A DNA stretch of 64,000 bases, taken from Alphaproteobacteria bacterium (GTDB lineage: Bacteria; Pseudomonadota; Alphaproteobacteria; Rs-D84; CACZYB01). Each line of letters begins with the position of its first letter. Position 1 is the stretch's first letter. The notes below the pieces were generated by a model that was not told the DNA's origin, did no database searches, and worked only from the letters and a program-made list of their open reading frames with translations. Position numbers and translations under genes: made by a program. Below are positions 11,675-58,027 of the stretch, piece after piece. The stretch covers positions 22,749-86,748 of the forward strand of contig WQWV01000002.1 of the NCBI GenBank assembly GCA_009785175.1, in the 5' to 3' direction.

Positions 11675-13168
11675 ATGAAAAACGTAAACAAAAATACCCC
11701 CCCCCATAACAAATTCTGGTGCGACCTTTATCACCTTACAATGGCGCAGGCCATGTTCCTTGAGGGAACGCACAACGACCCCGAAACCCAGGAGATGTTC
11801 ATTCGCAAGAACCCCTTCAAGGGAGAGTTCACCGTCGTAGCAGGTCTTGCACCTGTGATAGAATGGATCGCCCAATACGGATTTTCGGACGACCAGCTTG
11901 CCTATCTTGCCAGTTTGAAAAACACCAACGGCACGCCCAGGTTCAAGCCGGAATTCCTAGAGCTCCTTAAAAACGAACCGCTACAAATAACCATAGACGC
12001 CATGCCCGAGGGAGAAATAGTATTCCCCAACGAACCCATCGTGCGGATTTCCGGGCCGGCATGGCAGGTAAACCTTGTCGAATCGGCGTTCCTTCAATCC
12101 ATAAACTCGGCATCGCTTATCGCCACAAAGGCCGCGCGCATAAAGGGCGCCGACGAAGGAAAAATCTTCGCCGAGTTCGGACTGCGCCGCGCCCAAAACC
12201 CCATGATGGCATCACGTAGCGCTATCATCGGCGGGTTCAACTCGACCTCGAACGTAGACGCAGGTTTCCAATACGGAATCCCCGTGTCCGGAACCCACGC
12301 GCACAGCTTTATCATGCGTAAAAAGACCGAGCAGGCCGCTTTCGAATCATGGCTTAAACACAATCCAGACAACGCCATGGTGCTGATCGACACATACGAC
12401 ACGATCAACGGGATCAAGCTTGCCATCGAGGCGTCGAAAAAGACCGGTGTGCCGTTGATGGGAGTGCGACTTGACTCGGGCGACCTTGCGGCGCTTTCGA
12501 TCGAGGTTAGGCAGCTACTTGACGCCGCCGGCATGAAGACCACCAAGATCGTGGCAAGCAACGACTTGAACGAATACAAGATCACCGAACTTAAAAAACG
12601 CGGAGCCAAAATCGACTTCTATGGCGTAGGCACCGACGTCGCGACCGGCGGCGACCAGCCCGCGCTTGGCGGAGTATACAAGCTCAAGAAAACCCAAGAC
12701 GGCAAGGTCATAAAATGCTCGGAAGACCCGATCAAAACAACTATACCCGGAGCCACGGAAACTATCCGAATCCTTAGCGAAACCGGCAACTTCAAGCGCG
12801 ACGTCATCACGACCCTAGGGTTCGTGGCGGCAAATGCGGGACGCCTTAGCAAAGACATGAACGGATCAAATATGGACGGATCCTTCGCATGGCCGTATAC
12901 AAAGGGCGAGCGGTTCTATAAACCGATGAGACGAATGGTAAGCCGAGGCAAGGTCAACCCGACGGCAACCAAGCGTTCGGTCATGGAGATCGCCGCGGAC
13001 GCCAAGGCAAACCTTGCAAAACTCGATGCCTCGCACAAGCGCATAACCGTTCCCGCCAAATATCCATATGAAGGCGAATATCCGACAGCCTATCCGGTCG
13101 ACGTCGAAATCGGTCTTTTCAAAGAGCGTAGACGCATGATCGAACAAGCAAAACAGAAACAAAAATAA
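11675..13168 (+). CDS. pncB: nicotinate phosphoribosyltransferase (type II PRTase; could alternatively be nicotinamide PRTase)
   Basis: 497 aa; N-terminal DLYHLTM motif of NAPRT/NAMPT family; adjacent pncA favours nicotinate specificity; C9 tract in codons 8-10. Confidence 0.7.
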   Translation: MKNVNKNTPPHNKFWCDLYHLTMAQAMFLEGTHNDPETQEMFIRKNPFKGEFTVVAGLAPVIEWIAQYGFSDDQLAYLASLKNTNGTPRFKPEFLELLKNEPLQITIDAMPEGEIVFPNEPIVRISGPAWQVNLVESAFLQSINSASLIATKAARIKGADEGKIFAEFGLRRAQNPMMASRSAIIGGFNSTSNVDAGFQYGIPVSGTHAHSFIMRKKTEQAAFESWLKHNPDNAMVLIDTYDTINGIKLAIEASKKTGVPLMGVRLDSGDLAALSIEVRQLLDAAGMKTTKIVASNDLNEYKITELKKRGAKIDFYGVGTDVATGGDQPALGGVYKLKKTQDGKVIKCSEDPIKTTIPGATETIRILSETGNFKRDVITTLGFVAANAGRLSKDMNGSNMDGSFAWPYTKGERFYKPMRRMVSRGKVNPTATKRSVMEIAADAKANLAKLDASHKRITVPAKYPYEGEYPTAYPVDVEIGLFKERRRMIEQAKQKQK

Positions 13169-13189
13169 AGAAAGAAAAAGGTGAATATT

Positions 13190-13918
13190 ATGAAAGCATT
13201 ATTTGCAAACAACACAAACGATACTAACAACGAAAAAGACTGGCTGTTCACGCATATCGAGGGTCAAAACGACTTCATGAAGGCCAAGGGCGTGCTTGGA
13301 AGCCAGGGGGCCGAGGATCTGATCGAACCCACCAACCGCTTTGTCCGCGAAGGTGTCAGAAGGAAGGCGTTCGGGCATATACTTACCACCGGCGATTACC
13401 ACGTCGAGGAGGAATACCTTGCTTGCACCTATTCCCCCGAGGGAGCGACGTATCCCCACCACTGCGGACCCGGAACGTGGGGCTTTGAATACGCCATAGA
13501 CTTTCCGGCCAAAGGTCCAATGCGCACCCAGCTTTGGAAAAAGGATACGAGCATGTGGCACAACTCTGCGACAATCAACGGCAAGCCCGCGAATGTCGAG
13601 GCGCGCTTCCCCAAACAAAAGTGGAAGATCGTAATGGGCGGCGTGTGCACCGACATCTGCGTCGAGCTTGCGTTCGAACAATTCCTTGTCCGCGGATACG
13701 AAGTCGTAATCCTTACCGATCTTGTCAAAGGATACCAGAAGGAAATCGCGCAGGTTGTAGCCGAAGGCGGCGTGATACCCGGCGGATACCAGAAATACAT
13801 CGCGACCGGACAGCTGCGCCTTATGACGTCCGAGCAGTTCATCGCCGAGAACGCGAAGGTAGCAGAAGCGGGAAACGCCAAGGTTGGCGCAATACGCGAT
13901 GCAAGGGCCGGGAGATAG
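13190..13918 (+). CDS. pncA: nicotinamidase / isochorismatase-family cysteine hydrolase
   Basis: GVCTDICV catalytic-Cys motif, D and K of triad present; ATG 13190 preceded by AAGGTG. Confidence 0.7.
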   Translation: MKALFANNTNDTNNEKDWLFTHIEGQNDFMKAKGVLGSQGAEDLIEPTNRFVREGVRRKAFGHILTTGDYHVEEEYLACTYSPEGATYPHHCGPGTWGFEYAIDFPAKGPMRTQLWKKDTSMWHNSATINGKPANVEARFPKQKWKIVMGGVCTDICVELAFEQFLVRGYEVVILTDLVKGYQKEIAQVVAEGGVIPGGYQKYIATGQLRLMTSEQFIAENAKVAEAGNAKVGAIRDARAGR

Positions 13919-13965
13919 CGCGCCAAAACATGGGGAGGATCGTTGGTTTCCTCCCCTGAAATATA

Positions 13966-13993
13966 TTGACAAAAGATATTTTGTGGTTAATAT
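13966..13993 (+). promoter_or_regulatory. promoter TTGACA-N16-TAATAT with palindrome ACAAAAGATATTTTGT (candidate NrtR operator) upstream of nadE-nudix-nrtR
   Basis: 14/16 palindrome overlapping -35/spacer. Confidence 0.35.
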
Positions 13994-14015
13994 TAACAAA
14001 ATAGGAAAAACTGAA

Positions 14016-15467
14016 ATGTTGGATAAAAATAAGATTGTGATCGCCCAGCTTAACCCCATTGTCGGGGACATAAAGGACAATGCACGAAAAATCATAGAAG
14101 CATACCGTGCGGCGGCGGACGGGACGGATTTAATCATCACTCCCGCCGACGCGTTGACCGGCGCGCCGCTTGGCGACCTTGCGGGAAACCAGGATTTTCT
14201 TGTTGAGGTCGAGCGCGAAATGGCGCTTCTTGCAGGCAAGATTGGGAAAGCGCCGATTGTAGTTTCGATAGGCGGCAACATCTATCTTATCCAAAACGGC
14301 AAGGTCGAGATGGGGAACGATTTCGTCCTTGGCAAAACCAATGTCCGTGTCGCGTCGAATGGCACGAACGTGCCCATCTGGAATCCGGGAATCTATATAT
14401 CGCTTGATACTATCCCGTTTAGAATCGGGCGGGCCGAGGAGCGTGAAAAGCTTGCCCGGGACGCGTCAAAAACACAGGACGTGATCTGGGTCAACCGAGT
14501 CGGAGCAGAGGGAGAGCATATCTTCGACGGCGGAAGCTTTGCGATCGCAAAGGGCGGGGAAAAAATCTTCCAGATGCCGCGATGGATAGAGGGCGTGCAA
14601 ACGGTTGTAAAACAAAACTCCCTGCCCGCACAGGAATCCGAAATCTCGGAAATGTATAACGCCGCCGTGCTGGGCCTTAGCGACTACTATGTCAAGAACG
14701 GCTTCTTCAAGGGCGTGCTTTTGGGAATGTCGGGCGGGCTTGATTCCGCGCTTGTGTTCGCAATCGCCGCAGCCGCAATCGGTGCGAAGGCCGTGCGTCC
14801 CGTCGCAATGCCGTCAAAATACACGACGGGGGCAAGCAACTCCTTAGCGGAGGAAATGTGCAAGAACTATGGCGTGGAATTACAGGTCGAACCGATAGAG
14901 CACATGGTCGAACCTTTCCGTAAAACGCTTGATCCGAAACGCAGTATCACCGACGAGAACCTTCAGGCGCGCGTGCGCGGAATGCTTTTGATGGGAATAT
15001 CGAACGAGGAGGATCGGCTTTTGCTTTCCACATCGAACAAATCCGAAGTTGCGGTCGGCTATGGCACGCTTTACGGCGACATGTGCGGCGGATACAACCC
15101 CATCAAGGACATCTATAAAACCGATGCCTTCGAAATGTGCCGGCATATAAACAAGCAGGCCGGTCGCGAGATGATACCCGCCGAAATAATCAACCGCGCG
15201 CCGTCGGCGGAACTTAGCGCAGGGCAGAAGGACAGCGACTCGCTTCCGCCGTATCCCGTGCTTGACCATATAATAAAATCGCTTGTCGAGGACGGGTTGC
15301 CGGTCGATAAGATAGACGCAGACCGAGCCACTGTCCTTAGGGTCGCAAAAATGATCCAAAATGCCGAGTTCAAGCGGAGCCAAGCTTGTATCGGGCCCTC
15401 TATTTCCAAACGAGCGTTCGCCGATACCAACATGCCTGTGTTAAATAAATTCGAGAGGCAGAGATGA
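14016..15467 (+). CDS. nadE: glutamine-dependent NAD+ synthetase (N-terminal nitrilase/CN-hydrolase domain + NAD synthetase domain)
   Basis: C-terminal domain has SGGLDS PP-loop; N-terminal carbon-nitrogen hydrolase domain; 483 aa from ATG 14016. Confidence 0.85.
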   Translation: MLDKNKIVIAQLNPIVGDIKDNARKIIEAYRAAADGTDLIITPADALTGAPLGDLAGNQDFLVEVEREMALLAGKIGKAPIVVSIGGNIYLIQNGKVEMGNDFVLGKTNVRVASNGTNVPIWNPGIYISLDTIPFRIGRAEEREKLARDASKTQDVIWVNRVGAEGEHIFDGGSFAIAKGGEKIFQMPRWIEGVQTVVKQNSLPAQESEISEMYNAAVLGLSDYYVKNGFFKGVLLGMSGGLDSALVFAIAAAAIGAKAVRPVAMPSKYTTGASNSLAEEMCKNYGVELQVEPIEHMVEPFRKTLDPKRSITDENLQARVRGMLLMGISNEEDRLLLSTSNKSEVAVGYGTLYGDMCGGYNPIKDIYKTDAFEMCRHINKQAGREMIPAEIINRAPSAELSAGQKDSDSLPPYPVLDHIIKSLVEDGLPVDKIDADRATVLRVAKMIQNAEFKRSQACIGPSISKRAFADTNMPVLNKFERQR

Positions 15468-16069
15468 TAAAATTTCCAATGATCAACCGCCCACGAACCG
15501 TGATCCCGGACGATGCAAAACTTGTATACGACTCGGGCAGTATTTTGAAAACATACGAGTATGAGCAGGCGCAATTCGACGGGACGGCACGCAAATACGC
15601 GCTTGGCTGGCTTCGCGATTCCGCGTTTTGTATTCCGGTCAAAAACGAACGCTCCGTAATAATGCTTGAGCAGGAACAGGCCGGAGCCGCCGCCCCATTC
15701 TATGGTTTGCCCGGCGGATTCGTCGACGACGGAGAAGAACACGAGGGTGCGGCAAAACGCGAACTTGTCGAAGAGACCGGACACAAAAGCGACACCTTGA
15801 TCCACTTCATCGAACACAACAAATCGGATAAGATCGCTAATACCGAAAGCATATTCATAGCATACGACTGCGAGCGTGTAGGCGCGCAAAAACTCGACGC
15901 CGCGGAAAAAATAAAGGCTTTCGAAATCTCTATCCGCGAATTTATATGCGACATGCTTGTCCACCCCGATTTCCGCGAGAAATGGATCATGCAATATCTT
16001 GCCTTGCGATTTTCACGAAAAAAGCTTATAAATATATTAAAGGAAAACAAGTTCACAAAACAGAGGTAG
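15464..16069 (+). CDS. Nudix hydrolase (probable ADP-ribose pyrophosphatase)
   Basis: canonical Nudix box GGFVDDGEEHEGAAKRELVEETGH; overlaps nadE stop. Confidence 0.75.
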   Translation: MIKFPMINRPRTVIPDDAKLVYDSGSILKTYEYEQAQFDGTARKYALGWLRDSAFCIPVKNERSVIMLEQEQAGAAAPFYGLPGGFVDDGEEHEGAAKRELVEETGHKSDTLIHFIEHNKSDKIANTESIFIAYDCERVGAQKLDAAEKIKAFEISIREFICDMLVHPDFREKWIMQYLALRFSRKKLINILKENKFTKQR

Positions 16070-16074
16070 GAGAT

Positions 16075-16824
16075 ATGGCAACTATATACAAATCCGAAGG
16101 CGAATTTTTGGCCGCGTATGACGCGAACGCCTTCGACCGACCTTCCGCCACCTCGGATGTGCTTATATTTTCCGTATCGTCCTCAGAAGGCGAGAACTGG
16201 CGACGCGCCGCCAAAAAGGCGTTCAGCGTATTGCTTGTAAAACGCGACGACTATCCGTTTTTGGGCAAATGGAACCTGCCGGGCGGATTCGTAAAAATCG
16301 ATGAAACATCGGCCAACGCGGCTATGAGAATTTTGAAGAACGAAACCGGAGTTGCCGATAAAATCCACCTCGAGCAGCTATACACTTTCGATACGCCAAA
16401 CCGCGATCCGCGAACACGCGTGATTTCCATCGCGCACATGGCGCTTGTCGACAAGGCCCTGCTTCACTATGCCGCCGAGCGCGTCGCGAAATGGTTCGAT
16501 GTCGAGATGAAGGACGGGCGACTTTCGCTTTGTTCGGACGGGGAGTGTTTGTCGGGCGGCGACCTTGCCTTCGACCATGCCGAGATAATCAAAACCGGCG
16601 TGCTTCGCATGCGCGGGAAAATCGAATACACCGACATAGTTTTCGACATGATGCCCGCCGAATTCACGCTTGGCGAACTGCAACAGGTATACGAGGCCGT
16701 GTTGGATCGGAAACTTCTGCCCGCCGCTTTCCGCCGTGTGATCGCGGACAAGGTCGAGGCGACCGGCGGAATGCAGACCGGTTTGGGGCACCGCCCGTCG
16801 GCGCTTTTCAGATACAAAAGATAA
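16075..16824 (+). CDS. nrtR: NrtR-type Nudix-related transcriptional regulator of NAD metabolism (degenerate Nudix domain + C-terminal winged helix)
   Basis: 249 aa; degenerate Nudix signature GGFVKIDETSANAAMRILKNETGV; C-terminal ~100 aa basic domain; located inside NAD salvage cluster; AGGAGA SD. Confidence 0.65.
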   Translation: MATIYKSEGEFLAAYDANAFDRPSATSDVLIFSVSSSEGENWRRAAKKAFSVLLVKRDDYPFLGKWNLPGGFVKIDETSANAAMRILKNETGVADKIHLEQLYTFDTPNRDPRTRVISIAHMALVDKALLHYAAERVAKWFDVEMKDGRLSLCSDGECLSGGDLAFDHAEIIKTGVLRMRGKIEYTDIVFDMMPAEFTLGELQQVYEAVLDRKLLPAAFRRVIADKVEATGGMQTGLGHRPSALFRYKR

Positions 16825-20129: not shown

Positions 20130-21119
20130 ATGTTCAAAAAACTAAAAGATTATGGTTATGTGTTGACCAGCCCGAGGTATATGAAAAAATACCTGGTCCG
20201 TTTTCTTGGCAATTTCATTCCCACCAAATACCTTAGGGCGAAATTCAATATCCTTTGCTTTTGGCCGGGACAGATCAGCTTTGACCACACGCGCCTTCCA
20301 ATCATGCCCACCAAATGCGAGCGTATCGACGTCGCGCTTAGTTTTAACAAAGAGTATGTCAAGTTCGCCGCGGTCGTGATACTATCTCTTATCGAATCGT
20401 CGCGCGGCCGGTGCGATTACGATATCTGGTGCATAGTGGATTCGACGGTGGACGAGGAGGATAAAAAACTTTTGGCCGGCTTTGTCGACGGAACGGATTC
20501 AAGAATAAAATTCATACTTAACAACGACGATTTCGCGCATGCCAGAAGCGGCAAGTGGTCGCCCGTGGTATGGTGGAGGCTACAGCTTCCGGTATTGTTG
20601 CCGGCAAGCGTCAAGCGCGTGGTGTATGCGGATTGCGACACGGTATTCATCGGCGATTTGGCCGAGATTGCGCGCATGGATTTCGGAGATAATTTGATTG
20701 CCGGTTGCCGCGACTCGATATGGCGCAAATCGTATTTCGATGGGAAGCCGCGCGGAGATACCTATATCAACGCCGGCTTTACCGCCATGAACCTTGACGC
20801 AATCCGACGGGAAAAAATCATGGACCGGTGGATAGCCGAATCCAAGCGGCCGCATTCCTTCAACGATCAGGACGTAATAAACTATACCTGTGCCGGACGA
20901 GTAATGTTGCTACCTAGACGGTTCAACACCGATCCCAATCCCTTCATGTTCGACCCGGATATTTCGGAGCAGGATAGGCTCGAGATGAAATACAACACCG
21001 TCATGCTGCATTTGACTAATGTCCATAGGCCGTGGAAGCGCGGCGGACGAATCGTATCTCCGTTCGAGAAGGCATGGTTGTATTGGGCGGGAAAGACCGG
21101 GTTGTTTAAGTTTACCTAA
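20130..21119 (+). CDS. glycosyltransferase family 8 (LPS alpha-1,3-glucosyl/galactosyltransferase-like)
   Basis: GT8 pattern incl. DxD (YADCDTVFIGDLAEI), HLTNVHRPW C-terminal motif. Confidence 0.7.
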   Translation: MFKKLKDYGYVLTSPRYMKKYLVRFLGNFIPTKYLRAKFNILCFWPGQISFDHTRLPIMPTKCERIDVALSFNKEYVKFAAVVILSLIESSRGRCDYDIWCIVDSTVDEEDKKLLAGFVDGTDSRIKFILNNDDFAHARSGKWSPVVWWRLQLPVLLPASVKRVVYADCDTVFIGDLAEIARMDFGDNLIAGCRDSIWRKSYFDGKPRGDTYINAGFTAMNLDAIRREKIMDRWIAESKRPHSFNDQDVINYTCAGRVMLLPRRFNTDPNPFMFDPDISEQDRLEMKYNTVMLHLTNVHRPWKRGGRIVSPFEKAWLYWAGKTGLFKFT

Positions 21120-22704
21120 TCAACAACGGCGTTAATTCATCAAGCATTTTTTTTGCGGTAGGCGCAGCCGTGCAACCGGCGCCGATACATTTTCCATTCT
21201 TCGGTTCGTCAAGCATAACTACTATAGTATAACGCGGGCTTTCAAGCGGAATGGACGCCGCGAAGAAAGTCATCGTGCGCGTGGGATCATACTTGCCGTC
21301 CGACCCGCGCTTTTGCATGGTGCCGGTCTTGCCGCCCGAGACAAACTCGCTTGTCGATGCGCCGCGACCCGTGCCGTCCGTTATAACAAGACCCAAAAGG
21401 CGCTTCATCTCGACGGACGTATTCTCGCGCATGACTTGCCGCGCGGTGAAGGGAGTATCGAAATCGCGTTTCAGTATCGTAGGATTGATATACATTCCAC
21501 CGCCGACTATCGCATTCATAGCAACCGCCGTATGCAAAAGCGAAATCGCCAAGCCGTTGCCATAGGACACCGTTCGTCCGGTCGTCCTGGTCCACTCGGA
21601 CCGTATCGGAGCAGCGAGTCCGGGCAGCTCGAAATCAAGGCGCTCGAAGAAACGAAGCTTGCCAAGGAACTCGGTTTGTTTCGCGAATCCTATGGCGTCG
21701 GCGATATGGATCGAGGCGCGATTGCTCGAGTAAAAAAACGCCTCGTCGAAACTTAAAATCCGTTTGTAAAAATGCGAATCGCGAACGTTGAAGGCGCCGA
21801 TGTGCACAGCCTTGCTGACATCGAAATTAGTCTTTTGATCAAAGCCGTGCTCGATCGCAAGCGCGTGGTTGAAAATCTTCATGACCGAACCCTGTTCATA
21901 GGATTCAGAAATCACCTTGTTGCGATGAGGGCGAGAAAGCGCGAACGAATTCGCGCTTGATGAATCGAAATCAGGCAAGCTTACCAGCGCGACAACTTCT
22001 CCGTTTTTAACATCGATCACGACGCCCGCGGCGGCTATGGCGTTAAACCTTTCGAGCGCGTATAGAAGCGAGGAGTGCAGCGACTGCTGAACAAACCGAT
22101 CGACCGAGAGCTTAAGCGGTTCGGCGACGTATGCCGCGCCATTGTCGTCAAGGTATTTTTCTATGCCGAAGACGCCTTTGTTTTCCCTATTAATCCCTCC
22201 TATGACGTGGGCGAAAAGTCGGCCGTGCGGATAGTATCTTTCCTCGCGCGGAATGAATCGAATTCCAGGATCGCGAAGCGCCGCTATCCTATCCATGTCC
22301 TCTTTGGATACCGAGCGCGAAAGCACCGCGCATTTGCGCTTAAGAGCGAAAGCGTCCGAGATTTGTTTCTTTGAAAACTGCGGCATAAGGCGATTAAGGT
22401 TCGCGGCCGAGGCGACCGGATCCTTTACATCCACTCCATTTATGCAAAGCTCGAACACGGGAAGATTCAGCGCCAGCAATTCACCGTTGCGATCGACAAT
22501 ATCGCGCCTTACATTCACGGTGGACAGGCGCGCGGATTTGGGATTTCGCATCTCGTTAATCTGGAGCTGCGCTATACGAAAAATAAATATGGCGAAGGCG
22601 AGGCAGATCGCGACGCGAACCAAGATAAGCCGCATATCCCCGCCCCTTTTTTGAAACCACGCAAGCGGCAGGTGGCGGCCGTATATGAAGCCGGGGTCAT
22701 TCAT
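21112..22704 (-). CDS. ftsI: peptidoglycan D,D-transpeptidase, class B penicillin-binding protein (FtsI-like)
   Basis: N-terminal TM anchor; SxxK (GSVMK), SxN (SSN), KTG (KTGT) motifs; downstream of ftsL. Confidence 0.8.
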   Translation of the reverse strand: MNDPGFIYGRHLPLAWFQKRGGDMRLILVRVAICLAFAIFIFRIAQLQINEMRNPKSARLSTVNVRRDIVDRNGELLALNLPVFELCINGVDVKDPVASAANLNRLMPQFSKKQISDAFALKRKCAVLSRSVSKEDMDRIAALRDPGIRFIPREERYYPHGRLFAHVIGGINRENKGVFGIEKYLDDNGAAYVAEPLKLSVDRFVQQSLHSSLLYALERFNAIAAAGVVIDVKNGEVVALVSLPDFDSSSANSFALSRPHRNKVISESYEQGSVMKIFNHALAIEHGFDQKTNFDVSKAVHIGAFNVRDSHFYKRILSFDEAFFYSSNRASIHIADAIGFAKQTEFLGKLRFFERLDFELPGLAAPIRSEWTRTTGRTVSYGNGLAISLLHTAVAMNAIVGGGMYINPTILKRDFDTPFTARQVMRENTSVEMKRLLGLVITDGTGRGASTSEFVSGGKTGTMQKRGSDGKYDPTRTMTFFAASIPLESPRYTIVVMLDEPKNGKCIGAGCTAAPTAKKMLDELTPLLIR

Positions 22705-24433: not shown

Positions 24434-24871
24434 TTATCTATCGCGCTTGGCTTTATCCATCATCTCGGATAGTCCCAAAATCGGGTTCTTGCCCTGATAT
24501 TGCTTTTTGGATTCCTCGTTGGAAACCACGAAAGAGTTTCCGAATTTCTTTTCGTATTGGCGCAACAGAGCGGGAAATTTGTCGGGATCTATGCCGCCGG
24601 ATATTTTTATCGAGGCGAAATCCGCTTCTTTGAGTTGTGGGAATTGCTTGAGAAGAAAAGGTTTGGCAAATTCGGTAGCACGCGGAAGCGAGTGCGTCAT
24701 AAGGTCGTCGCCCGTCATGAAATTCAATACATCATACACATCATCAATGCGCCCGTCGGAAACTAGGTATCCCGTAGTGATATTCAAAATCTGCGCGAGA
24801 GTGAATTCTTTTTTCGTGATGTCCTTTTTAAGTTTGGACGTCCCAGTATTCAGGTCTTTTTTCGATACCAT
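24434..24871 (-). CDS. hypothetical protein (145 aa) inserted between mraZ and rsmH
   Basis: AAAGGAG SD; promoter with A9 tract and palindromic operator upstream. Confidence 0.5.
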   Translation of the reverse strand: MVSKKDLNTGTSKLKKDITKKEFTLAQILNITTGYLVSDGRIDDVYDVLNFMTGDDLMTHSLPRATEFAKPFLLKQFPQLKEADFASIKISGGIDPDKFPALLRQYEKKFGNSFVVSNEESKKQYQGKNPILGLSEMMDKAKRDR

Positions 24872-24898
24872 ATTTATCTCCTTTGGTTAATAATTTCA

Positions 24899-24961
24899 AT
24901 GATACAATCTATTTTTTTTTGTCAACTATTTTCCTGTTCCGCTCCGCGGAAAATAGTTGAC
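24899..24961 (-). promoter_or_regulatory. promoter TTGACA-[A9 tract]-N15-TATCAT overlapped by perfect 13-bp inverted repeat GTCAACTATTTTC-N15-GAAAATAGTTGAC (candidate operator)
   Basis: T9 at 24912-24920 on + strand; IR arms 24921-24933 and 24949-24961. Confidence 0.5.
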
Positions 24962-25236
24962 GGGGGAGTTTCAAATCATAAACCCAAATCTTATGCAACG
25001 GGCGGATAAGCCAGGCACGAAGTGCCGCAGCGAATCAGGGCCCCGTTGTAGAAGATTTATGCTTTTCGCGCTTTGCGCGAGGGGGGGGGCGCCCTGCGGG
25101 CTTGGAAAGCCTATGGTTTGATTTGCCTTAAAACTCTCCGCCCGGGGAGTTTTGGCGGCGACCCGCCTTCGCATAGCTCCGGCGAGGCAGGGGCTAGTGT
25201 TGGCGCACTCGCGGGGGAAGTTTCATTATACGTTGC

Positions 25237-26964: not shown

Positions 26965-26994
26965 ACAATACCCCCCCCCGGAAGATTTTGTCAA
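26965..26994 (-). promoter_or_regulatory. TTGACA-[aaatcttcc+G9]-TATTGT promoter with G9 tract (C9 on + strand 26971-26979) in 18-nt spacer
   Basis: same architecture as 8410-8436 and 32971-33000. Confidence 0.5.
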
Positions 26995-28001: not shown

Positions 28002-29372
28002 ATGATCAAAGTCGCGGTCGCTATCGCCGCTATCGTTTTGTTATTCGGAGTCGAAGCAGGAGCCAGAAAAGATTCCCGTATCGCCGATGCTTGCAAGTTC
28101 AACAAGGACATAGACACCGAAGTTTTGGATTTGGCGGACGCGATAGAACTCGCGCTTTGCAACAATCCCTCGACACGCGCAACGTGGCTTGCGGCAAAGG
28201 CTGCTACCGCATCTTACAACCGCGCGTATGCGCCATATCTCCCTACCCTTTCCGCCGAGGCAACATATCAGCAGGGGCGCACGGATCAATATACATACGT
28301 CGAGGACAACACGTTGATGACCAACGGAACATCGATCGGCGCGTCGGCAAGCTGGCTTTTGCTTGACTTCGGTCGGCGTGGCGCGAACTATGACATGGCG
28401 CGCGCAGCGATGATGTCGCGCGAGTTCCAGCACAATTCGAACATGCAGGAGACGGCGTTCGTCGCAATCCAAAATTTCTATAACCTTATCTCGGCCGACG
28501 AAGCGCTTGTGGCGGCGCGTGCGAACGAAGATGCTTCGGGCAAGGCCGCGCAAATCGCGGGCCGAAAATTCGAGCTTGGTATCAACTCGCGCGCCGACGT
28601 GTTGCAGGCGGAAACGGCTTTTTACCAAACGCAATTAAATACGACCCGACAGGAACAGGCTGTGTTGATCACCCGCGCGCAGCTTGCCCAATCCCTTGGC
28701 CTTCCTTCAAGCATAGCCCTTCAAATAGCTATGCCAGAAGAGAGCGAGAAGCATTCGATCGAGGCCGAGCAAAACCTTGACGAGCTTATCGCCACGGCGC
28801 TTGCCAACCGTTCGGATTTGCGCGCGCGTATCGAAGACGTGAAATCGTCGAAGGCGGGGATCGACGCTGTGCGGAGCGACTTCCTCCCTACGCTTACCGC
28901 GTTCGGTCGATCAACATGGAATTTCGACCACGACCATGATGCGAACGACCGGCCGTTCCATCACCAGCGCAGCATGGCCGCCGGCCTGACTTTGTCCGTG
29001 CCTTTGTTCAAAGGGTTCGACACGACGTTCGCCTATAGCGCGGCGAAATACAACTATCGCGCGGCGCAGGAAAATCTTAAACTAACCGAGCAGCAGGTCG
29101 AGCTTAGCGTAGTGAACGCATACCACAATTTCTCGACCGCGCAAAAATCGTTGGTGCTTGCGAAAAAAATGTTGGAATCCGCCACGGAATCCGAGCGCGT
29201 CGCTATGGGCTCGTATCAAGCCGGGCGCGGAAATATCCTTAACCTTTTGGATGCACAGGCCGCGCTTGCCCGCGCACGAAACGAGCTTATCGCCGCGCAA
29301 TACGGGCTTTACACTTCGAAGGTAGCGTTATTGAGAATGATTGGAATGCTCGACGCGCGCAACATGCACTAA
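28002..29372 (+). CDS. TolC-family outer membrane efflux protein
   Basis: signal peptide, two OEP repeats with conserved Leu heptads. Confidence 0.75.
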   Translation: MIKVAVAIAAIVLLFGVEAGARKDSRIADACKFNKDIDTEVLDLADAIELALCNNPSTRATWLAAKAATASYNRAYAPYLPTLSAEATYQQGRTDQYTYVEDNTLMTNGTSIGASASWLLLDFGRRGANYDMARAAMMSREFQHNSNMQETAFVAIQNFYNLISADEALVAARANEDASGKAAQIAGRKFELGINSRADVLQAETAFYQTQLNTTRQEQAVLITRAQLAQSLGLPSSIALQIAMPEESEKHSIEAEQNLDELIATALANRSDLRARIEDVKSSKAGIDAVRSDFLPTLTAFGRSTWNFDHDHDANDRPFHHQRSMAAGLTLSVPLFKGFDTTFAYSAAKYNYRAAQENLKLTEQQVELSVVNAYHNFSTAQKSLVLAKKMLESATESERVAMGSYQAGRGNILNLLDAQAALARARNELIAAQYGLYTSKVALLRMIGMLDARNMH

Positions 29373-32572: not shown

Positions 32573-32690
32573 AGCGAAGCCACAGCCGCCAGCAGGGCGA
32601 AAGAGCAGTATTGCGCGCACCCCTGCGTGGGGTGGCGGTTGTGCGCGCAGCGAGGCGAGCTCGCTGGAAAGTCAATGTATAAACGTGAAA
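32573..32690. repeat. R3 structured repeat copy (hairpin GCGCGCAC/GTGCGCGC, loop CCCTGCGTGGGGTGGCGGTT) + conserved 3' arm GAGCTCGCTGGAAAG
   Basis: 3' arm also shared with copy at 4486-4520. Confidence 0.8.
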
Positions 32691-32970: not shown

Positions 32971-33000
32971 TTGACAAAATCCTGTGGGGGGGGGTAGATT
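32971..33000 (+). promoter_or_regulatory. TTGACA-[aaatcctgt+G9]-TAGATT promoter with G9 tract (32986-32994) in 18-nt spacer, driving the 33032-34666 operon
   Basis: -35 32971-32976, -10 32995-33000, AAGGA SD then ATG 33032. Confidence 0.55.
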
Positions 33001-37478: not shown

Positions 37479-37502
37479 AAATTCTTAATCAAGCATAACC
37501 CC

Positions 37503-37790
37503 AAATCTATACCTATGGACAGCTCGAGGCAACGAGAGCGAGGTTCCATGGGAATAGATTTGTAGCTACGCGCAAAGCGCTCCCTCCCCCCCCATTTTTT
37601 TGATAACACAGGTTTAATCTGTCTCAAACAAAACATCGACGTAGCGATACTCGCATCACGTCCTAGCGCCACTACGCCGGCAGGGCGGAAGCGCCAATGG
37701 CGCGCAGCTCTTCGAGCTGGAGAACACAATGTATAAAAAGATTTGTGCGTAGGCGGAACGCCAAGAGCAGTTGGCCTTTGTGAGGCGGCG
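37503..37790. repeat. composite mosaic repeat, second copy (R2 core, C8/T7 tract, R3 fragment, identical 57-mer at 37700-37756, GCCAA hairpin)
   Basis: see 3404-3590. Confidence 0.85.
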
Positions 37791-45801: not shown

Positions 45802-46700
45802 TGATTGCGTTAGAGGCAAGGAGGAAATGGCTTGACTTCTTGCGCTCGGAGAGGCGGTTTTCGGCGCACACGTTGGTCGCATACGAAAACGATATCGGAG
45901 ATTTTTTGAAGTATGTCGGCGGGCGCGATTTGTCCGACATCTCCTTGCGCGAATTTCGCGGATTCGTCGCCACCATGGCGCGAGAGGAATTGCGCGCGAC
46001 CTCTATTGCCCGGAAAGTTTCGGCCCTTAAAAGCTTCTATCGATTCCTCGAGCAGAACGGGATAGCGAACAATCCATACGTCGCGATTTTGCGCCTGCCG
46101 AAGCAGCCGAAAAAACTTTCGAAATCGCTTGGCCACGAGGACGTGGGCGAGATTTTGGACGCCTTCAACGCGATCGCTAAACTACCATGGATAGCACGGA
46201 GAAATCGCGCATTATTTACTTTGATATATGGCGCTGGCTTGCGAATTTCCGAGGCGCTTGGCGTCAACATCGAGGCGGTGGGAGAGGACGAAATACGCAT
46301 TCGCGGCAAGGGATCGAAGGAGCGGATCGTGCCGCTTCTATCAGTTATAAAAACCGAGATCGAATCGTATATCAATGCTATGCCTTTTTCGCGCACGACC
46401 GGGCCGTTGTTCATCGGGGAAAAAGGAGCGAGGCTGTCGGCGCGCGTGGCGGAACGCGACTTTGCGGCGGCTAGAAATTATTTACAACTATCGGCAAGCG
46501 CTACGCCCCATTCACTTCGTCATTCGTTCGCGACGCACCTGCTTGCCGCGGGTGCCGATTTACGGACTATACAAGAGCTGCTTGGGCATTCGTCGTTGTC
46601 TACAACTCAACTTTATACCAAAACGGATATGGGCACGATCGCGAAGCAATATGCGAAATCGCATCCGCGGGCTTCGTTTAACAAAAAGTCCTTCGCGTAG
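45801..46700 (+). CDS. xerC: tyrosine recombinase XerC/XerD family
   Basis: core-binding N domain; catalytic R…HxxR…Y (HSLRHSFATHLL, LGHSSLSTTQLYT). Confidence 0.8.
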   Translation: MIALEARRKWLDFLRSERRFSAHTLVAYENDIGDFLKYVGGRDLSDISLREFRGFVATMAREELRATSIARKVSALKSFYRFLEQNGIANNPYVAILRLPKQPKKLSKSLGHEDVGEILDAFNAIAKLPWIARRNRALFTLIYGAGLRISEALGVNIEAVGEDEIRIRGKGSKERIVPLLSVIKTEIESYINAMPFSRTTGPLFIGEKGARLSARVAERDFAAARNYLQLSASATPHSLRHSFATHLLAAGADLRTIQELLGHSSLSTTQLYTKTDMGTIAKQYAKSHPRASFNKKSFA

Positions 46701-46800
46701 CAAGCGACGCCGAGCAGGGCGGCAAGCGGTGTATACCGCGCGCGTCCAGCGTGGGGGCGGCGGAGCGCGCGGAGCCCTTCGGGCTGGAGGGTCAAATTAT
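46697..46800. repeat. R3 structured repeat copy (stem CCGCGCGC/GCGCGCGG, loop GTCCAGCGTGGGGGCGGCGGA)
   Basis: 5' arm GACGCCGAGCAGGGCGG conserved. Confidence 0.8.
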
Positions 46801-47439: not shown

Positions 47440-49215
47440 TTGATCACCTGGAACTCGAACGGCAAAGTCGGCGGCAAGGGAGCTGCGTTATTTCGATTGA
47501 CCGATATGGGTTTGCCGGTGCCGGAATTCTTCGTCGTGTCGACCGACGCGATGGCGGCATTCATAAAAGAAAACGATATACGGGCCGGAGATTCCAAGGC
47601 TATCATGCGCGGAAAACTTTCGCCTGAGCTCGAGAAGGAAATTACCGCCGCCGCTGCTGCGCTGGGGGGGGGTAAATTCTCCGTTCGTTCGTCCGCGACG
47701 ATGGAGGACGGAGCCGAAAAATCCTTCGCGGGGCAATTTTCTTCTTTCTTGAATGTCGACAAAAAGGGCTTGCCTGCGGCGATCAAAAAAGTGTGGGCAT
47801 CGTTGTTTTCCGGCGGAGCGGCCGCGTATGCCGGGCGCGGATTCGATTCACATTCCATGGCAGTCATAGTTCAAAAGATGGTGAAGCCTTACGCCGCAGG
47901 AGTCGCCTTCTCGATCAACCCTATGGCCGCCGATAAAAACTATATGCTTATCGAATCGTGCGCGGGCACGGGCGACAAGCTTGTGTCCGGAAAAATCACG
48001 CCCTCTAAATATTTCGTGCGTAGATCGTCCAAAAAAACAGACGCGGTTTATGGGCGCCGGCATATATCCGAATCATCGCTTAAAAAGCTTGCCTCGTTCG
48101 TGCTTGAAATCGAGCAGGAATTCGGCACGCCGACCGATGTAGAATGGTGCGCGTCGGCAAGCGGCAAAATCCATATACTACAGGCCAGGCCGATAACATC
48201 CTTCGCGCCGGCACCGATCGAATACAGAAAACTTTTCTCGCGCCCGCATTCGATAATGAAACTTCAACTTTACAGACATGCCGAAGACGACGGGTTGAGG
48301 GCGCTTACGAACGGGGATTATCATTACACGCCTTTGTTCACATACGACGCGGCAAGGGACACCGTCGACGTTCATTACAATTTCAATGCGCCCGAGCAGC
48401 ACCCGGCAAATATCCTTCGCGAGATGGATTGCCGATACGCATGGACGGCCAACAAATACCGCGCGGCGGAGAAGGCGGTTCCGGCGGTGCTTGAATACAT
48501 ATCGGGAAAAAGGAAATTCGAGGCCGAAAAATTCCTTGGGCTTTTGCGCATGGTTTATACGCTTTCGAATCTTGGCAACGTGTCGGAGTATACGAAATCG
48601 AAAAGAATGCGGCGACTTGCGGCGGGATTCAGAAAGAAATACGACTATGTCGCCTATCGCGCCGAGGACTTCTTGATCGAAAAGGCGGCCGAGGTCGCGG
48701 CGCCGGAACTAAGGGACGACCTTCGCTTCTTAACCTTCGAAGAAGTGTTCGGAGGACGGCGCGTGTCGCGGCGCGAAATCGACGTCCGTAAAAAAGGGTT
48801 CGTGTATTTCGGCGGAGAGTTGACATGCGCGGCAAGCCTTAAACCGGTGCTTGAGAAAAATAATTTTTTCATCGCGGAGGAGGCGCCGAAACACGGAGCG
48901 CTTAGGGGACAGTCGATATGTCGCGGCGTGGCCACCGGTGTCGTGCGAATCATCTATGGCCCGAAGGACTTCGGCAAATTCCGGGCGGGCGACATAATAG
49001 TCGCGCCGATGACCTTGCCAAGCTTCACGCCGTTGATGAAAATCGCCGCCGCAATCATAACGGACGAGGGCGGTGCGACGTGCCATGCCGCGATAGTCGC
49101 GCGCGAGCTTAAGGTTCCATGTATCATAGGCGTGAAAAACGCGACGTCGGTTTTGGCGGACGGAGAGAAAATAAGGGTCGACGCGAATACCGGCGCTATT
49201 TCCTATGAACGCTGA
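47440..49215 (+). CDS. PEP-utilising enzyme family protein (pyruvate,water dikinase-like N-terminal ATP-grasp + C-terminal phosphohistidine mobile domain); TTG start; G9 tract in codons ~75-77
   Basis: C-terminal GGATCHAAIVARELKVPCIIGV; N-terminal PPDK_N-like. Confidence 0.7.
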   Translation: MITWNSNGKVGGKGAALFRLTDMGLPVPEFFVVSTDAMAAFIKENDIRAGDSKAIMRGKLSPELEKEITAAAAALGGGKFSVRSSATMEDGAEKSFAGQFSSFLNVDKKGLPAAIKKVWASLFSGGAAAYAGRGFDSHSMAVIVQKMVKPYAAGVAFSINPMAADKNYMLIESCAGTGDKLVSGKITPSKYFVRRSSKKTDAVYGRRHISESSLKKLASFVLEIEQEFGTPTDVEWCASASGKIHILQARPITSFAPAPIEYRKLFSRPHSIMKLQLYRHAEDDGLRALTNGDYHYTPLFTYDAARDTVDVHYNFNAPEQHPANILREMDCRYAWTANKYRAAEKAVPAVLEYISGKRKFEAEKFLGLLRMVYTLSNLGNVSEYTKSKRMRRLAAGFRKKYDYVAYRAEDFLIEKAAEVAAPELRDDLRFLTFEEVFGGRRVSRREIDVRKKGFVYFGGELTCAASLKPVLEKNNFFIAEEAPKHGALRGQSICRGVATGVVRIIYGPKDFGKFRAGDIIVAPMTLPSFTPLMKIAAAIITDEGGATCHAAIVARELKVPCIIGVKNATSVLADGEKIRVDANTGAISYER

Positions 49216-56974: not shown

Positions 56975-57240
56975 AAATGGGTATACCAGAATTTATACGA
57001 CGCCAGGACCCTGATTTCTTCGATAAAAGGGATAGGGATTTGAAACGTAGAAATGACAGAGGGAGAGGTGGCGGAAGGTCATATTCACGCAGCTATTCAT
57101 CGCGCTCTGATTATGTATCGCCAAACAGTATGGAAGGAAGATGGAGTGCAAAACCAACGGAGCTTTCTCAACTTGAAAAAGACGAAGCCGCGCGGCGCGT
57201 GAAACAAACACTTGCAAAAATGAAAGGAAACAGGAAATGA
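56971..57240 (+). CDS. hypothetical low-complexity basic protein (R/S/G-rich), GC-poor
   Basis: ORF overlapping comM stop. Confidence 0.35.
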   Translation: MKMGIPEFIRRQDPDFFDKRDRDLKRRNDRGRGGGRSYSRSYSSRSDYVSPNSMEGRWSAKPTELSQLEKDEAARRVKQTLAKMKGNRK

Positions 57241-57812
57241 GGCACTATAGAGAACTCGCGATGGTCGACGCATACGTCCGGCAGGCAAACAGCACGATAA
57301 AGCTTGTCGAAGACGACAACATAATCACAATTAGGAAGCGCTTGGATTACAATTGGCTTGACGCGGACTATAAATTCACCAACAAGGTATACAACGTGCT
57401 TGTTCCCGAATTGCGTTCGCCGATAAAGCTTAGCCGGACGAATGTTTATAAATCCGACGGGGGGGGGTGGGAATATTACGGCTGCTATTCGTCCATATAT
57501 GTAGGATCGCTTACCCCATACAGCTATTCATCGTCAGTAAACTGCGACGCGGACGAAATGTTCAACCTTATTGAAAAGCAAATCGAAAACGGAAAGAAAT
57601 GTATCCTTGCAATCAGATATGAAAATAGAAACCAAAAACCGGGCGACGCCTCGATGGAACATAGAAAAAGACAGGCGCAAGCCCACGCCGACTGCGATGC
57701 GGAAGCATTCTTTAAGATTAGAAAAGCCGCAACGAAAGTCGCAACTGTGCAAGACATAGCGACGGCGAAAAAGACCCTTAAGGCCATAATGAACGACAAA
57801 CGGAAAAGGTAA
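57237..57812 (+). CDS. hypothetical protein (191 aa) with in-frame G9 tract (57459-57467, codons GGG GGG GGG)
   Basis: ORF; GC-poor. Confidence 0.45.
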   Translation: MRHYRELAMVDAYVRQANSTIKLVEDDNIITIRKRLDYNWLDADYKFTNKVYNVLVPELRSPIKLSRTNVYKSDGGGWEYYGCYSSIYVGSLTPYSYSSSVNCDADEMFNLIEKQIENGKKCILAIRYENRNQKPGDASMEHRKRQAQAHADCDAEAFFKIRKAATKVATVQDIATAKKTLKAIMNDKRKR

Positions 57813-58027
57813 AATAGAAAGTAAGCAAAAACTGGTCAAAGAAGAAAGCATACGTCTTTAACAAAAGCAAGGAATTGATACCCTCGCCCGATGCTAAAAT
57901 AGAACGACCGTGCAAAATCCGCGTTGGCCGCTATAAAGCACCTTATACTATAATTATCTGGATTGCATCTGCTACGCGTTCCCTCTGTTCCCGGCTTGTG
58001 GGGGGGGGGTAATGACGAGAGAGAGCT

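Follow-up and report, generated by a model that had tools for sequence, protein, structure and literature searches.

Putatively phase-variable G/C homopolymer tracts in promoter spacers and early reading frames of an uncultured alphaproteobacterium

To our knowledge, homopolymer phase variation is known almost only from a few cultured host-adapted pathogens, namely, Campylobacter, Helicobacter, Neisseria, Haemophilus, and Treponema pallidum. The genome of Campylobacter jejuni is 1.6 to 1.7 Mb in length, that of T. pallidum has a GC content of about 52%, and the porA and opc genes of Neisseria meningitidis have homopolymers in their promoter spacers. Tamas et al. reportedly found in 2008 that transcriptional slippage rescues homopolymer frameshifts in insect endosymbionts. 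PhasomeIt finds a median of about 20 tracts per C. jejuni genome; Campylobacter poly-G tracts are 77% intragenic, 53% G9, and 26% G10, with G on the coding strand in 95%, and the threshold length for frequent slippage of poly-G/C is 7 nt or more, with switching shown for 8 nt or more (PMC6321876). In T. pallidum, poly-G promoter switches operate at tp0126, tprE/G/J, and tprL (PMC7864442, citing Giacani 2007 and 2015). The tp0126 run, mostly of 9 G, lies in the -35/-10 spacer, and a spacing of 17 nt gives the strongest transcription (PMC7864442). The simple-sequence contingency loci of N. meningitidis include variable repeats in metabolic genes (PMC5084427).

The stretch of DNA analyzed here (the window) is 64 kb from an NCBI MAG of an uncultured alphaproteobacterium (locus tags FWD15_*; genome GC, 52%) whose closest sequenced relative is a termite-gut MAG. 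Extension of the window with an independent assembly gave an 81-kb composite, which is all of the genome seen here. The assemblies compared (JGI/NCBI, ENA ERZ27264051, and Logan SRR10512954 and SRR5215205) are consensus sequences of one clonal strain. We conclude that the G/C tracts of this DNA are a real, non-random, unusually dense, and putatively phase-variable set of the Campylobacter, T. pallidum, and Neisseria type in a new lineage.

Inventory and excess of G/C tracts

Nine G/C runs of at least 8 nt occur in the window. An earlier note on this DNA had listed the same nine, all of which are present, with the C8 run starting at 37586 and not at 37585; the span that it gave its feature, from 11697, leaves out the tract at 8416 that it lists itself. 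The tracts, with two A runs considered below, are as follows.

8416..8424, minus strand: G9, most of the 15-bp promoter spacer between TTGACA (8436-8431) and TAGAAT (8415-8410)
11697..11705, plus strand: C9 in pncB (11675-13168), codons 8-11, AAT ACC CCC CCC CAT (NTPPH)
24912..24920, minus strand: A9 in a promoter spacer, between TTGACA (24925-24920) and TAGATT (24911-24906) or TATCAT (24904-24899)
25081..25089, plus strand: G9 in an intergenic repeat whose GC-rich core is variable, within that core, between mraZ and a DUF7736 gene
26971..26979, minus strand: G9, the 3' half of the 18-bp promoter spacer between TTGACA (26994-26989) and TATTGT (26970-26965)
29163..29169, plus strand: A7 in a TolC-family outer-membrane efflux gene (28002-29372); A6 in ENA
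32986..32994, plus strand: G9, the 3' half of the 18-bp promoter spacer between TTGACA (32971-32976) and TAGATT (32995-33000)
37586..37593, plus strand: C8 in the core of another copy of the repeat found at 25081, between convergent genes at 36057-37478 (plus) and 37818-38222 (minus)
47664..47672, plus strand: G9 in a gene with PPDK_N and PEP-utilizers domains (47440-49215, 591 aa), codons 75-78 (L-G-G-G)
57459..57467, plus strand: G9 in an orphan 191-aa open reading frame (57237-57812; FWD15_01350), codons 75-77 (G-G-G)
58000..58009, plus strand: G10 between the 3' ends of two convergent genes

The lengths of G/C runs in the window are bimodal, with four runs of 6 nt, none of 7, one of 8, seven of 9, and one of 10. 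For 64 kb, independent bases predict 2.1 runs of at least 8 nt (0.55 of at least 9 nt), a first-order Markov model predicts 1.24, and a third-order model 0.58, while extrapolation of the window's own decay over lengths 2 to 6 gives 0.19. The Poisson probability of nine or more runs ranges over the null models from 1e-4 to 1e-12, and the excess over composition claimed by the earlier note holds under all four (9 observed versus 0.19 to 2.1 expected). A set of 94 unrelated loci (1.54 Mb) has 7 runs of this kind, which corresponds to 0.3 per 64 kb. A/T runs in the window decay smoothly and show no excess (2 of at least 8 nt versus about 11 extrapolated), and no other simple repeats were found, the enrichment being limited to G/C homopolymers.

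The composite holds 15 tracts, about 1 per 5.4 kb, 10 of them 9 nt and 3 of them 10 nt long; all fifteen, among them the nine of the window at 8 to 10 nt, are of slippage-prone length. Against a codon-preserving shuffle, coding G/C runs of 6 to 7 nt are depleted (5 versus 15.2 expected) and those of at least 8 nt are enriched (6 versus 1.3; P = 0.001); for the coding tracts of the window alone, the excess over a conservative synonymous-codon shuffle is marginal (3 versus 0.9; P = 0.049). Nine of the 15 composite tracts are intergenic, versus an intergenic fraction of 14.6% (P = 7e-5). Coding tracts are biased toward the 5' end, at relative positions of 0.015 to 0.395, with five of seven within the first 13% of the gene (P = 6e-4), and six of the seven have G on the sense strand (gene C, described below, being counted). 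The preference is for the DNA sequence itself: GGG makes up 14.5% of glycine codons, yet 4 of 10 Gly-Gly-Gly tripeptides are encoded by runs of at least 8 G (P = 4e-5). The GGG and PP residues that the tracts encode occupy nonconserved positions in the proteins.

Tracts in promoters, genes, and intergenic repeats

At 8416, 26971, and 32986, the tract lies between recognizable -35 and -10 hexamers, so that its length would set a spacing near 17 bp. The layout is TTGACA-N-G9-TAnnnT, then about 25 nt, then AGGAG and ATG, while the ordinary promoters of the window have the same hexamers and 16- to 18-bp spacers without a tract. Based on the known spacer-length dependence of sigma-70 promoters, we infer that expression from these three depends on tract length. 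The promoter at 8416, with an AGGAG ribosome-binding site and ATG about 30 nt downstream, precedes an orphan gene of 159 aa (7901-8380, minus strand) that lies downstream of ruvC (8590-9051, minus strand). It is probably in a low or OFF state, because its 15-bp spacer is outside the 16- to 18-bp range of the ordinary promoters; G10 to G12 would bring the spacer back within that range. The promoter at 26971, called by an independent consensus scan (10 of 12 matches) and paralogous to that at 32971, precedes an orphan gene of 120 aa (26567-26929, minus strand). The tract at 32986 belongs to the promoter of an orphan four-gene cassette (33032-34666), in which genes 1 to 3 are CxxC-containing paralogs with 24 to 26% identity to each other and no homologs outside this organism. 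The A9 run at 24912 is an A/T analogue of the G-tract promoters; it lies upstream of the DUF7736 gene (24434-24871, minus strand), which is inserted between mraZ and rsmH, and a paralogous TTGAC-A9-TA promoter occurs 6 kb to the left of the window. Neither the spacer role of the three G tracts nor this A9 run had been mentioned in the earlier note. The orphan small-gene cassettes behind G-tract promoters are wedged between housekeeping genes.

Three window tracts had been described previously as lying in frame within coding sequence, in pncB, the PEP-utilizing enzyme (GGGK), and a hypothetical gene (DGGGW), where slippage by one nucleotide would truncate the product. Reading of the codons confirms the frames, and the computed frame-shifted products are truncated in all three cases. 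The pncB tract, the sole coding tract with C on the sense strand, would yield 54 aa at C8 and 11 aa at C10. Since the conserved FWCDxYHLTMAQ motif begins directly after the C9 run, the ATG at 11675 is the true start; Pfam NAPRTase_N covers residues 16 to 144, and none of the homologs, which share 57% identity or less, has PP at the tract position. The tract is within a nonconserved N-terminal extension. Given this position and the variable repeats in metabolic genes of N. meningitidis (PMC5084427), its presence in a salvage enzyme is less anomalous than had been supposed. In the PEP-utilizing enzyme (CTG GGG GGG GGT AAA, LGGGK, codons 75-79), the GGG is in a variable linker right before the conserved VRSSATxED motif; G10 would lead to an immediate TAA stop (78 aa) and G8 to a product of 103 aa. 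The 191-aa frame (GAC GGG GGG GGG TGG) would give 88 aa at G8 and 112 aa at G10. We rejected the idea of pseudogenes rescued by transcriptional slippage, as every tract-bearing gene in the window is in frame at the DNA level.

Just outside the window, the composite includes a family of secreted Cys-rich paralogs that carry tracts. In paralogs A, B, and C the tract position is conserved, just before or within the signal peptide, and genes B and C have a common 5' CTAT-Gn context. From its annotated start, gene B (G9) reads in frame. From the equivalent start, gene C (G10) reaches a stop after 22 codons, but G9 or G12 would make it encode a 94-aa product that has a signal peptide. The OFF status of gene C is not certain, because at G10 it can also be read in frame from an alternative ATG whose G is the first of the tract. 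Gene calls near the tracts differ between pipelines (pncB, 497 or 475 aa; gene B, 348, 332, or 262 aa), which would be a reason for caution in MAG annotation if phase variation is confirmed.

The remaining three tracts are in neither a promoter nor an early reading frame and have no plausible regulatory role. The 25081 tract shares homologous flanks with a G8 tract at window-equivalent position 66228 and with tract-less copies, and we found there no significant RNA structure and no open reading frame opened by a length change. No promoter, open reading frame, or significant RNA structure was detected at 37586, and the 58000 tract has no evident gene target. These three are probably mutable bystanders.

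Length variation and competing explanations

Pairwise comparison with ENA and the two Logan samples, over about 100 kb, shows not a single SNP; the sequences differ at just two places, each time in the length of a homopolymer. All other tracts are identical in three to four consensus assemblies. The tract at 58000, the only G/C tract that differs between samples, is G10 versus G11 in SRR5215205, the sole difference in the 6,213 bp of that contig; this could be an Illumina or assembly error. The A6 allele of the TolC-family gene in ENA, the sole difference in more than 20 kb, causes a frameshift, whereas the A7 allele, also carried by Logan SRR10512954, retains the full second OEP repeat (231 versus 188 bits). 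Every coding or promoter G/C tract has a constant length across the JGI/NCBI, ENA, and Logan consensus assemblies of this one clonal strain: those at 8416, 11697, 32986, and 47664 are 9 nt in ENA and Logan, that at 57459 in ENA and SRR5215205, and that at 26971 in ENA. The intergenic tract at 25081 is G9 in ENA and SRR5215205, the length at 37586 is identical in ENA, and the A9 run at 24912 is the same length in ENA and SRR5215205. Apart from that of paralog C, which at G10 is not in frame with the upstream start, all coding tracts are ON. No OFF alleles were found in the other assemblies, and none of ten predicted OFF-state proteins occurs in a collection of 15 billion proteins.

We consider it probable that these homopolymers are hypermutable and belong to the simple-sequence contingency-locus type. 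This reading has its best support in the promoter spacers, the 5' bias, the GGG preference, the depletion of 6- to 7-nt runs, the peak at 9 to 10 nt with G on the sense strand, and the G10/G11 difference, none of which had been mentioned in the earlier note. The note had seen the same signature and is supported in part: the excess, the in-frame tracts, the truncations, and the overall match agree with it, but no coding tract varies in the assemblies. Strand slippage during replication would add or remove one G:C pair. At the level of transcription, where the G run is the 3' half of the -35/-10 spacer in three promoters, a one-base change would reset the spacing (18, 18, and 15 bp as sequenced) and hence promoter strength. 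At the level of translation, a one-base change in the early run of pncB, the PEP-utilizing enzyme, the 191-aa frame, or the secreted Cys-rich proteins would cause a frameshift and truncation. High-frequency switching of expression through these spacers and frames would follow, and may be adaptive.

Sequencing or assembly artefacts, for example two-colour-chemistry poly-G or homopolymer miscalls, are effectively refuted as an explanation. The organism is known only from metagenome assemblies, and both observed length differences could be errors, but identical tracts recur at identical positions in JGI/NCBI, ENA ERZ27264051, Logan SRR10512954, and SRR5215205 and are therefore not products of a single assembly, as the earlier note had allowed they might be. 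In addition, coding tracts hold conserved genes in frame, promoter tracts complete otherwise canonical spacers, and C and G runs both occur on the same strand. It is unlikely that the tracts arose neutrally, as a side effect of a mutational regime specific to the lineage, in which weak mismatch repair or a slippage-prone polymerase expands G/C runs to an equilibrium near 9 nt wherever they are tolerated. The tracts would then be mutable without being used as switches, and their placement in intergenic DNA, nonconserved loops, and N termini would reflect least harm. Such a regime would account for tracts without regulatory logic (at 58000 between gene ends, and at 25081 and 37586 in a repeat core), for the nonconserved protein positions of the coding tracts, and, if frameshifts are purged, for their being in frame in every assembly; the polymorphic A7 run also suggests general homopolymer instability. 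However, it leaves unexplained the threefold depletion of 6- to 7-nt runs alongside the enrichment of those of at least 8 nt, and the exact replacement by the tract of the 3' half of otherwise canonical spacers. Nor does it predict a 5' bias within genes, as tolerated loops occur along whole proteins, or the conserved position at the signal peptide in paralogs A, B, and C, and in 18.8 kb of the nearest sampled relative no G/C run exceeds 6 nt.

The tracts also have a preferred immediate context. TAnnnT directly follows 7 of the 15 and T precedes 9 of the 15, versus 1.3% and 26%, respectively, for short G runs (P about 1e-9), and the 18-mer TAT-G9-TATTTT is shared by gene B and, in antisense, by pncB. 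One could imagine a T-G9-TAnnnT module, recognized by a protein or acting as a structural or promoter element, that spread through the genome and whose length is kept at 9 by its function, and 10 of the 15 tracts are indeed exactly 9 nt, invariant across assemblies. We consider a fixed-length element of this kind very improbable. Lengths of 8, 9, 10, and 11 are all seen, and a peak at 9 with minorities of 8 and 10 is the pattern of the mutable tracts of Campylobacter and T. pallidum; direct reading of the flanks shows no -35 element at a usable distance from the intragenic copies, and, four paralogous pairs aside, the flanks have nothing in common past the first few bases. Part of the TA bias comes from TAA and TAG, which provide an immediate stop upon slippage. 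More speculatively, and we doubt that it will prove so, this could be the densest homopolymer phasome yet described: at about 1 tract per 5 kb, there would be several hundred loci in a genome of typical size, reaching into core NAD salvage and orphan cassettes within conserved operons. In this speculative reading, the tracts may also originate or spread through a T-Gn-TAnnnT module, as a propagating promoter-like unit or a site-specific generator of tracts, and not by random expansion of short runs.

Comparison with known systems

The phase-variation strategy of the cultured pathogens appears to be present in an uncultivated alphaproteobacterium, with mostly orphan genes plus metabolic enzymes as its targets. 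If this is confirmed, stochastic switching would be a wider ecological strategy among uncultured symbionts, and the tracts would single out specific orphan genes for which variable expression is presumably important, be it in the host or against phage. The T-Gn-TAnnnT context, if upheld, would bear on how contingency tracts originate.

The insect endosymbionts resemble this organism as a host-associated lineage with long homopolymers in essential or metabolic genes. In those AT-rich, reduced genomes, however, the runs are poly-A/T and the genes are out of frame; the present genes keep their frame and carry G/C runs, with no enrichment of A/T runs. In N. meningitidis, as would be the case here, promoter homopolymers change the spacing of elements and intragenic G/C tracts cause frameshifts, and the variable repeats in metabolic genes of that species are a precedent for pncB; Neisseria differs in its many tetra- and pentanucleotide repeats and A/T tracts, only G/C homopolymers being enriched here. 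T. pallidum shares promoter poly-G (within the -35/-10 spacer at tp0126), the predominance of 9 G, and a similar GC content. Its targets are outer-membrane protein genes, in contrast to the orphan genes without signal peptides found here, and its length heterogeneity was measured directly, with fragment analysis and reporter assays.

The overlap with the Campylobacter poly-G phasome includes the restriction to poly-G/C, lengths that peak at 9 and then 10, an abundance above chance, intragenic tracts that nearly all have G on the coding strand, and the presence of both translational (frameshift) and promoter-associated tracts. In Campylobacter, switching has been demonstrated, the genome has about 30% GC, 77% of tracts are intragenic, and the targets are mainly surface-structure genes. 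The present case comes from a 52% GC alphaproteobacterium, with about 47% of tracts intragenic and with orphan cytoplasmic proteins and metabolic enzymes as the targets. Finally, with 15 tracts in the 81 kb seen here versus a median of about 20 in a whole C. jejuni genome, the density of tracts in this DNA is higher by roughly tenfold.

Abundance, length and placement of the tracts

An exact run search of the window recovers all nine G/C homopolymers of at least 8 nt (tracts, named here by their start in the window) listed in the earlier note, with one start corrected from 37585 to 37586.

Table. G/C tracts in the window (exact run search, forward-strand base) and adjoining TAnnnT sites
8416, C9: promoter spacer; TAnnnT at 8410-8415
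11697, C9: coding, pncB; TAnnnT at 11691-11696 (antisense)
25081, G9: intergenic repeat
26971, C9: promoter spacer; TAnnnT at 26965-26970
32986, G9: promoter spacer; TAnnnT at 32995-33000
37586-37593, C8: intergenic repeat
47664, G9: coding, PEP enzyme (47440-49215, + strand); TAnnnT at 47673-47678
57459, G9: coding, 191-aa ORF (57237-57812)
58000, G10: between two convergent gene ends

The tract set is real and statistically robust. At the window's GC content of 52%, independent bases predict 2.1 runs of at least 8 nt (0.55 of at least 9 nt) versus the nine observed; the expectation is 1.24 under a first-order and 0.58 under a third-order Markov model, and 0.19 by extrapolation of the window's own run-length decay, in which each additional base multiplies the count by 0.17. 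Across these null models, P lies between 1e-4 and 1e-12. The excess is larger than the earlier note had estimated. Unrelated loci totaling 1.54 Mb contain seven runs of this length, a density of 0.3 per 64 kb. More than half of these background tracts come from one locus of an unrelated termite-gut Bacillota MAG (Lab288P1bin80), where 21 kb contains four G8 runs, most of them in a terminator-like G8-TTTTT context. The length distribution is more telling than the number of runs: G/C runs of 6, 7, 8, 9 and 10 nt number 4, 0, 1, 7 and 1, whereas A/T runs fall smoothly (71, 18, 1, 1) and show no excess. A search for di- to pentanucleotide arrays found none.

Exact-protein look-ups retrieved three assemblies of the same strain (ENA ERZ27264051, Logan SRR10512954 and Logan SRR5215205), from which the window was extended to an 81.3-kb composite. 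It contains 15 tracts (two of 8 nt, ten of 9 nt and three of 10 nt), a density of roughly one every 5.4 kb. Nine of the 15 are intergenic, compared to 14.6% of the DNA (P=7e-5). The coding tracts lie at relative gene positions of 0.015-0.395, five of the seven inside the first 13% of the gene (P=6e-4), and in six of the seven the sense strand carries G. Of the 10 Gly-Gly-Gly tripeptides, 4 are encoded by runs of at least 8 G, although GGG accounts for 14.5% of glycine codons (P=4e-5). Within-gene synonymous shuffling of the composite predicts 1.3 coding runs of at least 8 nt, versus six observed (P=0.001); for the window alone, the values are 0.9 and three (P=0.049). Coding runs of 6-7 nt are depleted about threefold in the composite (5 observed versus 15.2 expected from the same shuffle). 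Thus, long runs are retained while those of intermediate length are avoided, and the depletion suggests selection against accidentally mutable runs. Only four paralogous tract pairs occur; of the nine tracts in the window, at least eight arose independently.

Promoter-spacer tracts

The earlier note had concentrated on coding sequence and overlooked the clearest cases, which are promoter spacers. On the sense strand of the downstream gene, the tracts at 8416, 26971 and 32986 each read as G9. In each case the run occupies the 3' part of a spacer that separates a perfect TTGACA from a TAnnnT hexamer, the -10 box; AGGAG and ATG follow after about 25 nt. Two of the three promoters are also recovered by an independent consensus scan. 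The present spacers are 15 bp (8416) and 18 bp (26971 and 32986); ordinary promoters in the window (5306, 10649, 25721 and 59794) have the same hexamers and 16-18 bp spacers with no tract. An A9 run at 24912 has the layout of the G9 promoters.

Table. Genes downstream of homopolymer-containing promoters
8416: 159-aa orphan, downstream of ruvC
26971: 120-aa orphan
32986: cassette of four orphan genes (33032-34666), the first three being CxxC-containing paralogs
24912 (A9): DUF7736 gene, wedged between mraZ and rsmH

The genes driven by tract promoters have no signal peptide and no PADLOC or NCBIfam match, and a profile search of 1.84 billion proteins with the orphans returned only the organism's own copies. 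PHROGs, PADLOC and NCBIfam were likewise uninformative about the function of the putatively switched cassettes; Pfam gave only DUF7736, and one PHROG of unknown function was matched.

The genes mraZ and rsmH are normally adjacent. The DUF7736 (PHROG_15963) gene region between them (24434-24962) has its own TTGAC-A9-TAGATT promoter, whose -35 region is overlapped by a 14-bp inverted repeat (GTCAACTATTTTCC ... GGAAAATAGTTGAC, ~24921-24961) that looks like a candidate operator. Another A9 promoter, paralogous to this one, is found 6 kb left of the window.

Coding tracts, their sequence context and tracts without evident target

Three tracts lie in frame within genes, as the earlier note described, and simulated one-base changes agree with its claim that a slip of one nucleotide either way would truncate each product; in the +1 versions of pncB and the PEP enzyme, a stop follows the tract immediately. 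The C9 of pncB encodes part of T-P-P-H within a non-conserved N-terminal extension; the tract is directly followed by the conserved FWCDxYHLTMAQ motif, which identifies the ATG at 11675 as the true start. In the PEP enzyme (591 aa, PPDK_N/PEP-utilizers), the GGG belongs to a variable linker that immediately precedes the conserved VRSSATxED motif. The 191-aa ORF is an orphan.

The pncB gene (protein MCL2439087.1; locus tags prefixed FWD15_ in the NCBI and JGI MAG) is part of a complete NAD-salvage operon (11046-16824) with NadD-like, pncA (isochorismatase family), nadE, Nudix and NrtR-like regulator genes, and a frameshift at its C9 could have polar effects on the whole pathway. A tract is indeed unusual in such a salvage enzyme, as had been claimed, but it has precedent, since variable repeats are reported in metabolic genes of N. 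meningitidis (PMC5084427). A 475-aa JGI call for pncB was considered as a different tract length and rejected: it comes from the same 88,849-bp contig as the 497-aa NCBI call and reflects the gene caller.

Further coding tracts occur outside the window in three secreted Cys-rich orphan paralogs, genes A, B and C, all with a G9 or G10 tract at codons 11-14.

Table. Cys-rich family on the flanking loci L102 and L104
L102 13797-14100: window-equivalent 65658-65940
L102 16530-17576: window-equivalent 68391-69437
L104 4063-4821: window-equivalent -3376 to -2618

Genes B and C, just right of the window, have a common 5' 'CTAT-Gn' context. In gene B the G9 is in frame and just ahead of the signal peptide. 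Gene C (G10) meets a stop after 22 codons from the equivalent start, and G9 or G12 would give a 94-aa signal-peptide protein; its ON/OFF state is ambiguous, as G10 also puts in frame an alternative ATG whose G is the first of the tract. Genes A and B have a common C-terminal GAGGAVAAxISIGTAGSAEDNLKRF motif. The length of gene B differs by gene caller (348, 332 or 262 aa), and a homolog search with it found none; in the function search on the cassettes and gene B, the AlphaFold model (pLDDT 46) gave no basis for a fold search.

Read as poly-G, the 15 composite tracts are followed directly by TAnnnT in seven cases and by TA in eight, and are preceded by T in nine; for runs of 3-6 G, the frequencies are 1.3%, 3.1% and 26% (Fisher P ~1e-9 versus long tracts). 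This T-Gn-TAnnnT context occurs in none of seven control tracts from other genomes. It also occurs within genes, namely the PEP enzyme, genes A and B and, on the antisense strand, pncB; these copies have no -35 element. The preceding T is often part of TAT, and an identical 18-mer, TAT-G9-TATTTT, occurs in pncB (antisense) and gene B. An immediate stop after slippage, provided by TAA or TAG, explains the context only partly; it may reflect common origin or a preferred site of tract formation.

For the tracts at 25081, 37586 and 58000, neither an evident target nor significant RNA structure was found: Rfam matched only two tRNAs, and folding z-scores of the non-coding tracts range from -0.25 to +1.25. 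The first two occupy the variable GC-rich core of an intergenic repeat, at the site of an ordinary small hairpin in other copies. Short intergenic repeat families (50-180 bp, 70-97% identity) form a network across the window, and the family with the variable GC-hairpin core has a G/C tract in three of six copies.

Table. Intergenic repeat copies
2226-2417
3393-3601
4408-4503
9087-9157
24973-25065
26332-26431
32577-32671
37491-37787
46699-46775
61473-61536

Variation, rival explanations and known systems

Over ~100 kb of pairwise comparison with the other same-strain assemblies, we found no SNPs and two differences, both in homopolymer length. One is G10 versus G11 (in SRR5215205) at 58000. The other, the sole difference in >20 kb between the window and the ENA assembly, is A7 versus A6 at 29163-29169 in a TolC-family outer-membrane gene (28002-29372) of a MacAB-type efflux operon: the A7 allele of the window is intact, and A6 causes a frameshift that cuts short the second OEP repeat. 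These differences fit homopolymer hypermutability, although homopolymer sequencing error could also produce them. At promoter and coding tracts, all assemblies agree on length; these are consensus sequences of one clone, and an exact look-up of ten predicted slipped products in a collection of 15 billion proteins found none. Assembly breaks were tried as a proxy for heterogeneity and rejected, as contig ends coincide with tracts in no consistent way; the ENA and SRR5215205 contigs both break at 21606-21612, inside ftsI/PBP3 (21112-22704), where there is no homopolymer or obvious repeat.

Judged by sequence similarity, this is an isolated lineage. For pncB the next-best match has 54% identity, and the efflux membrane-fusion protein had no match above 42% in a scan of JGI metagenomes. 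The closest GTDB genome in a scan with Asp/Asn-tRNA synthetase (68% identity) is a termite-gut alphaproteobacterial MAG, whose 18.8 kb has no other gene in common with this region and no G/C run longer than 6. Near the window's end, NrdD (anaerobic ribonucleotide reductase) is called as 673 aa (61862-63883); after a 68-bp gap, a separate 64-aa ORF (from 63952, past the window end) is likewise an NRDD family match. The gene may be split or frameshifted, or the arrangement in two pieces may be genuine.

We consider it probable that the tracts are slippage-prone homopolymers acting as putative contingency loci. Those in promoter spacers would adjust the transcription of the orphan cassettes or turn it on and off, those in 5' coding sequence would switch translation, and a few would be bystanders. 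A contingency-locus signature had been proposed in the earlier note; it holds and is richer than described, with promoter spacers and a 5' bias, whereas actual switching is something that we infer. Homopolymer instability peculiar to the lineage, with the tracts as its neutral by-product, would account for those that have no evident target and for the A7 polymorphism. It is an unlikely reading, given the exact placement in promoters, the shortage of 6-7 nt runs and the bias toward the 5' ends of genes. Elements acting in cis at a fixed length are a more doubtful proposition still. Sequencing or assembly artefact, which the earlier note regarded as grounds for abandoning its claim, is effectively excluded, because the same tracts are reproduced across different pipelines and reading frames are conserved.

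Homopolymeric contingency loci are of a known kind; what is new is the presence of such putative loci in an uncultured lineage where they were not expected, and their local density is unusually high. In length spectrum, in strand bias and in being exclusively G/C homopolymers, they resemble the Campylobacter phasome, in which 53% of tracts are G9, 26% are G10 and 95% have G on the coding strand, with a median of ~20 tracts per C. jejuni genome (PMC6321876). The predicted promoter layout matches that of T. pallidum tp0126 and tprL, in which poly-G, mostly 9 G, lies between -35 and -10 and transcription is best at 17 nt (PMC7864442).
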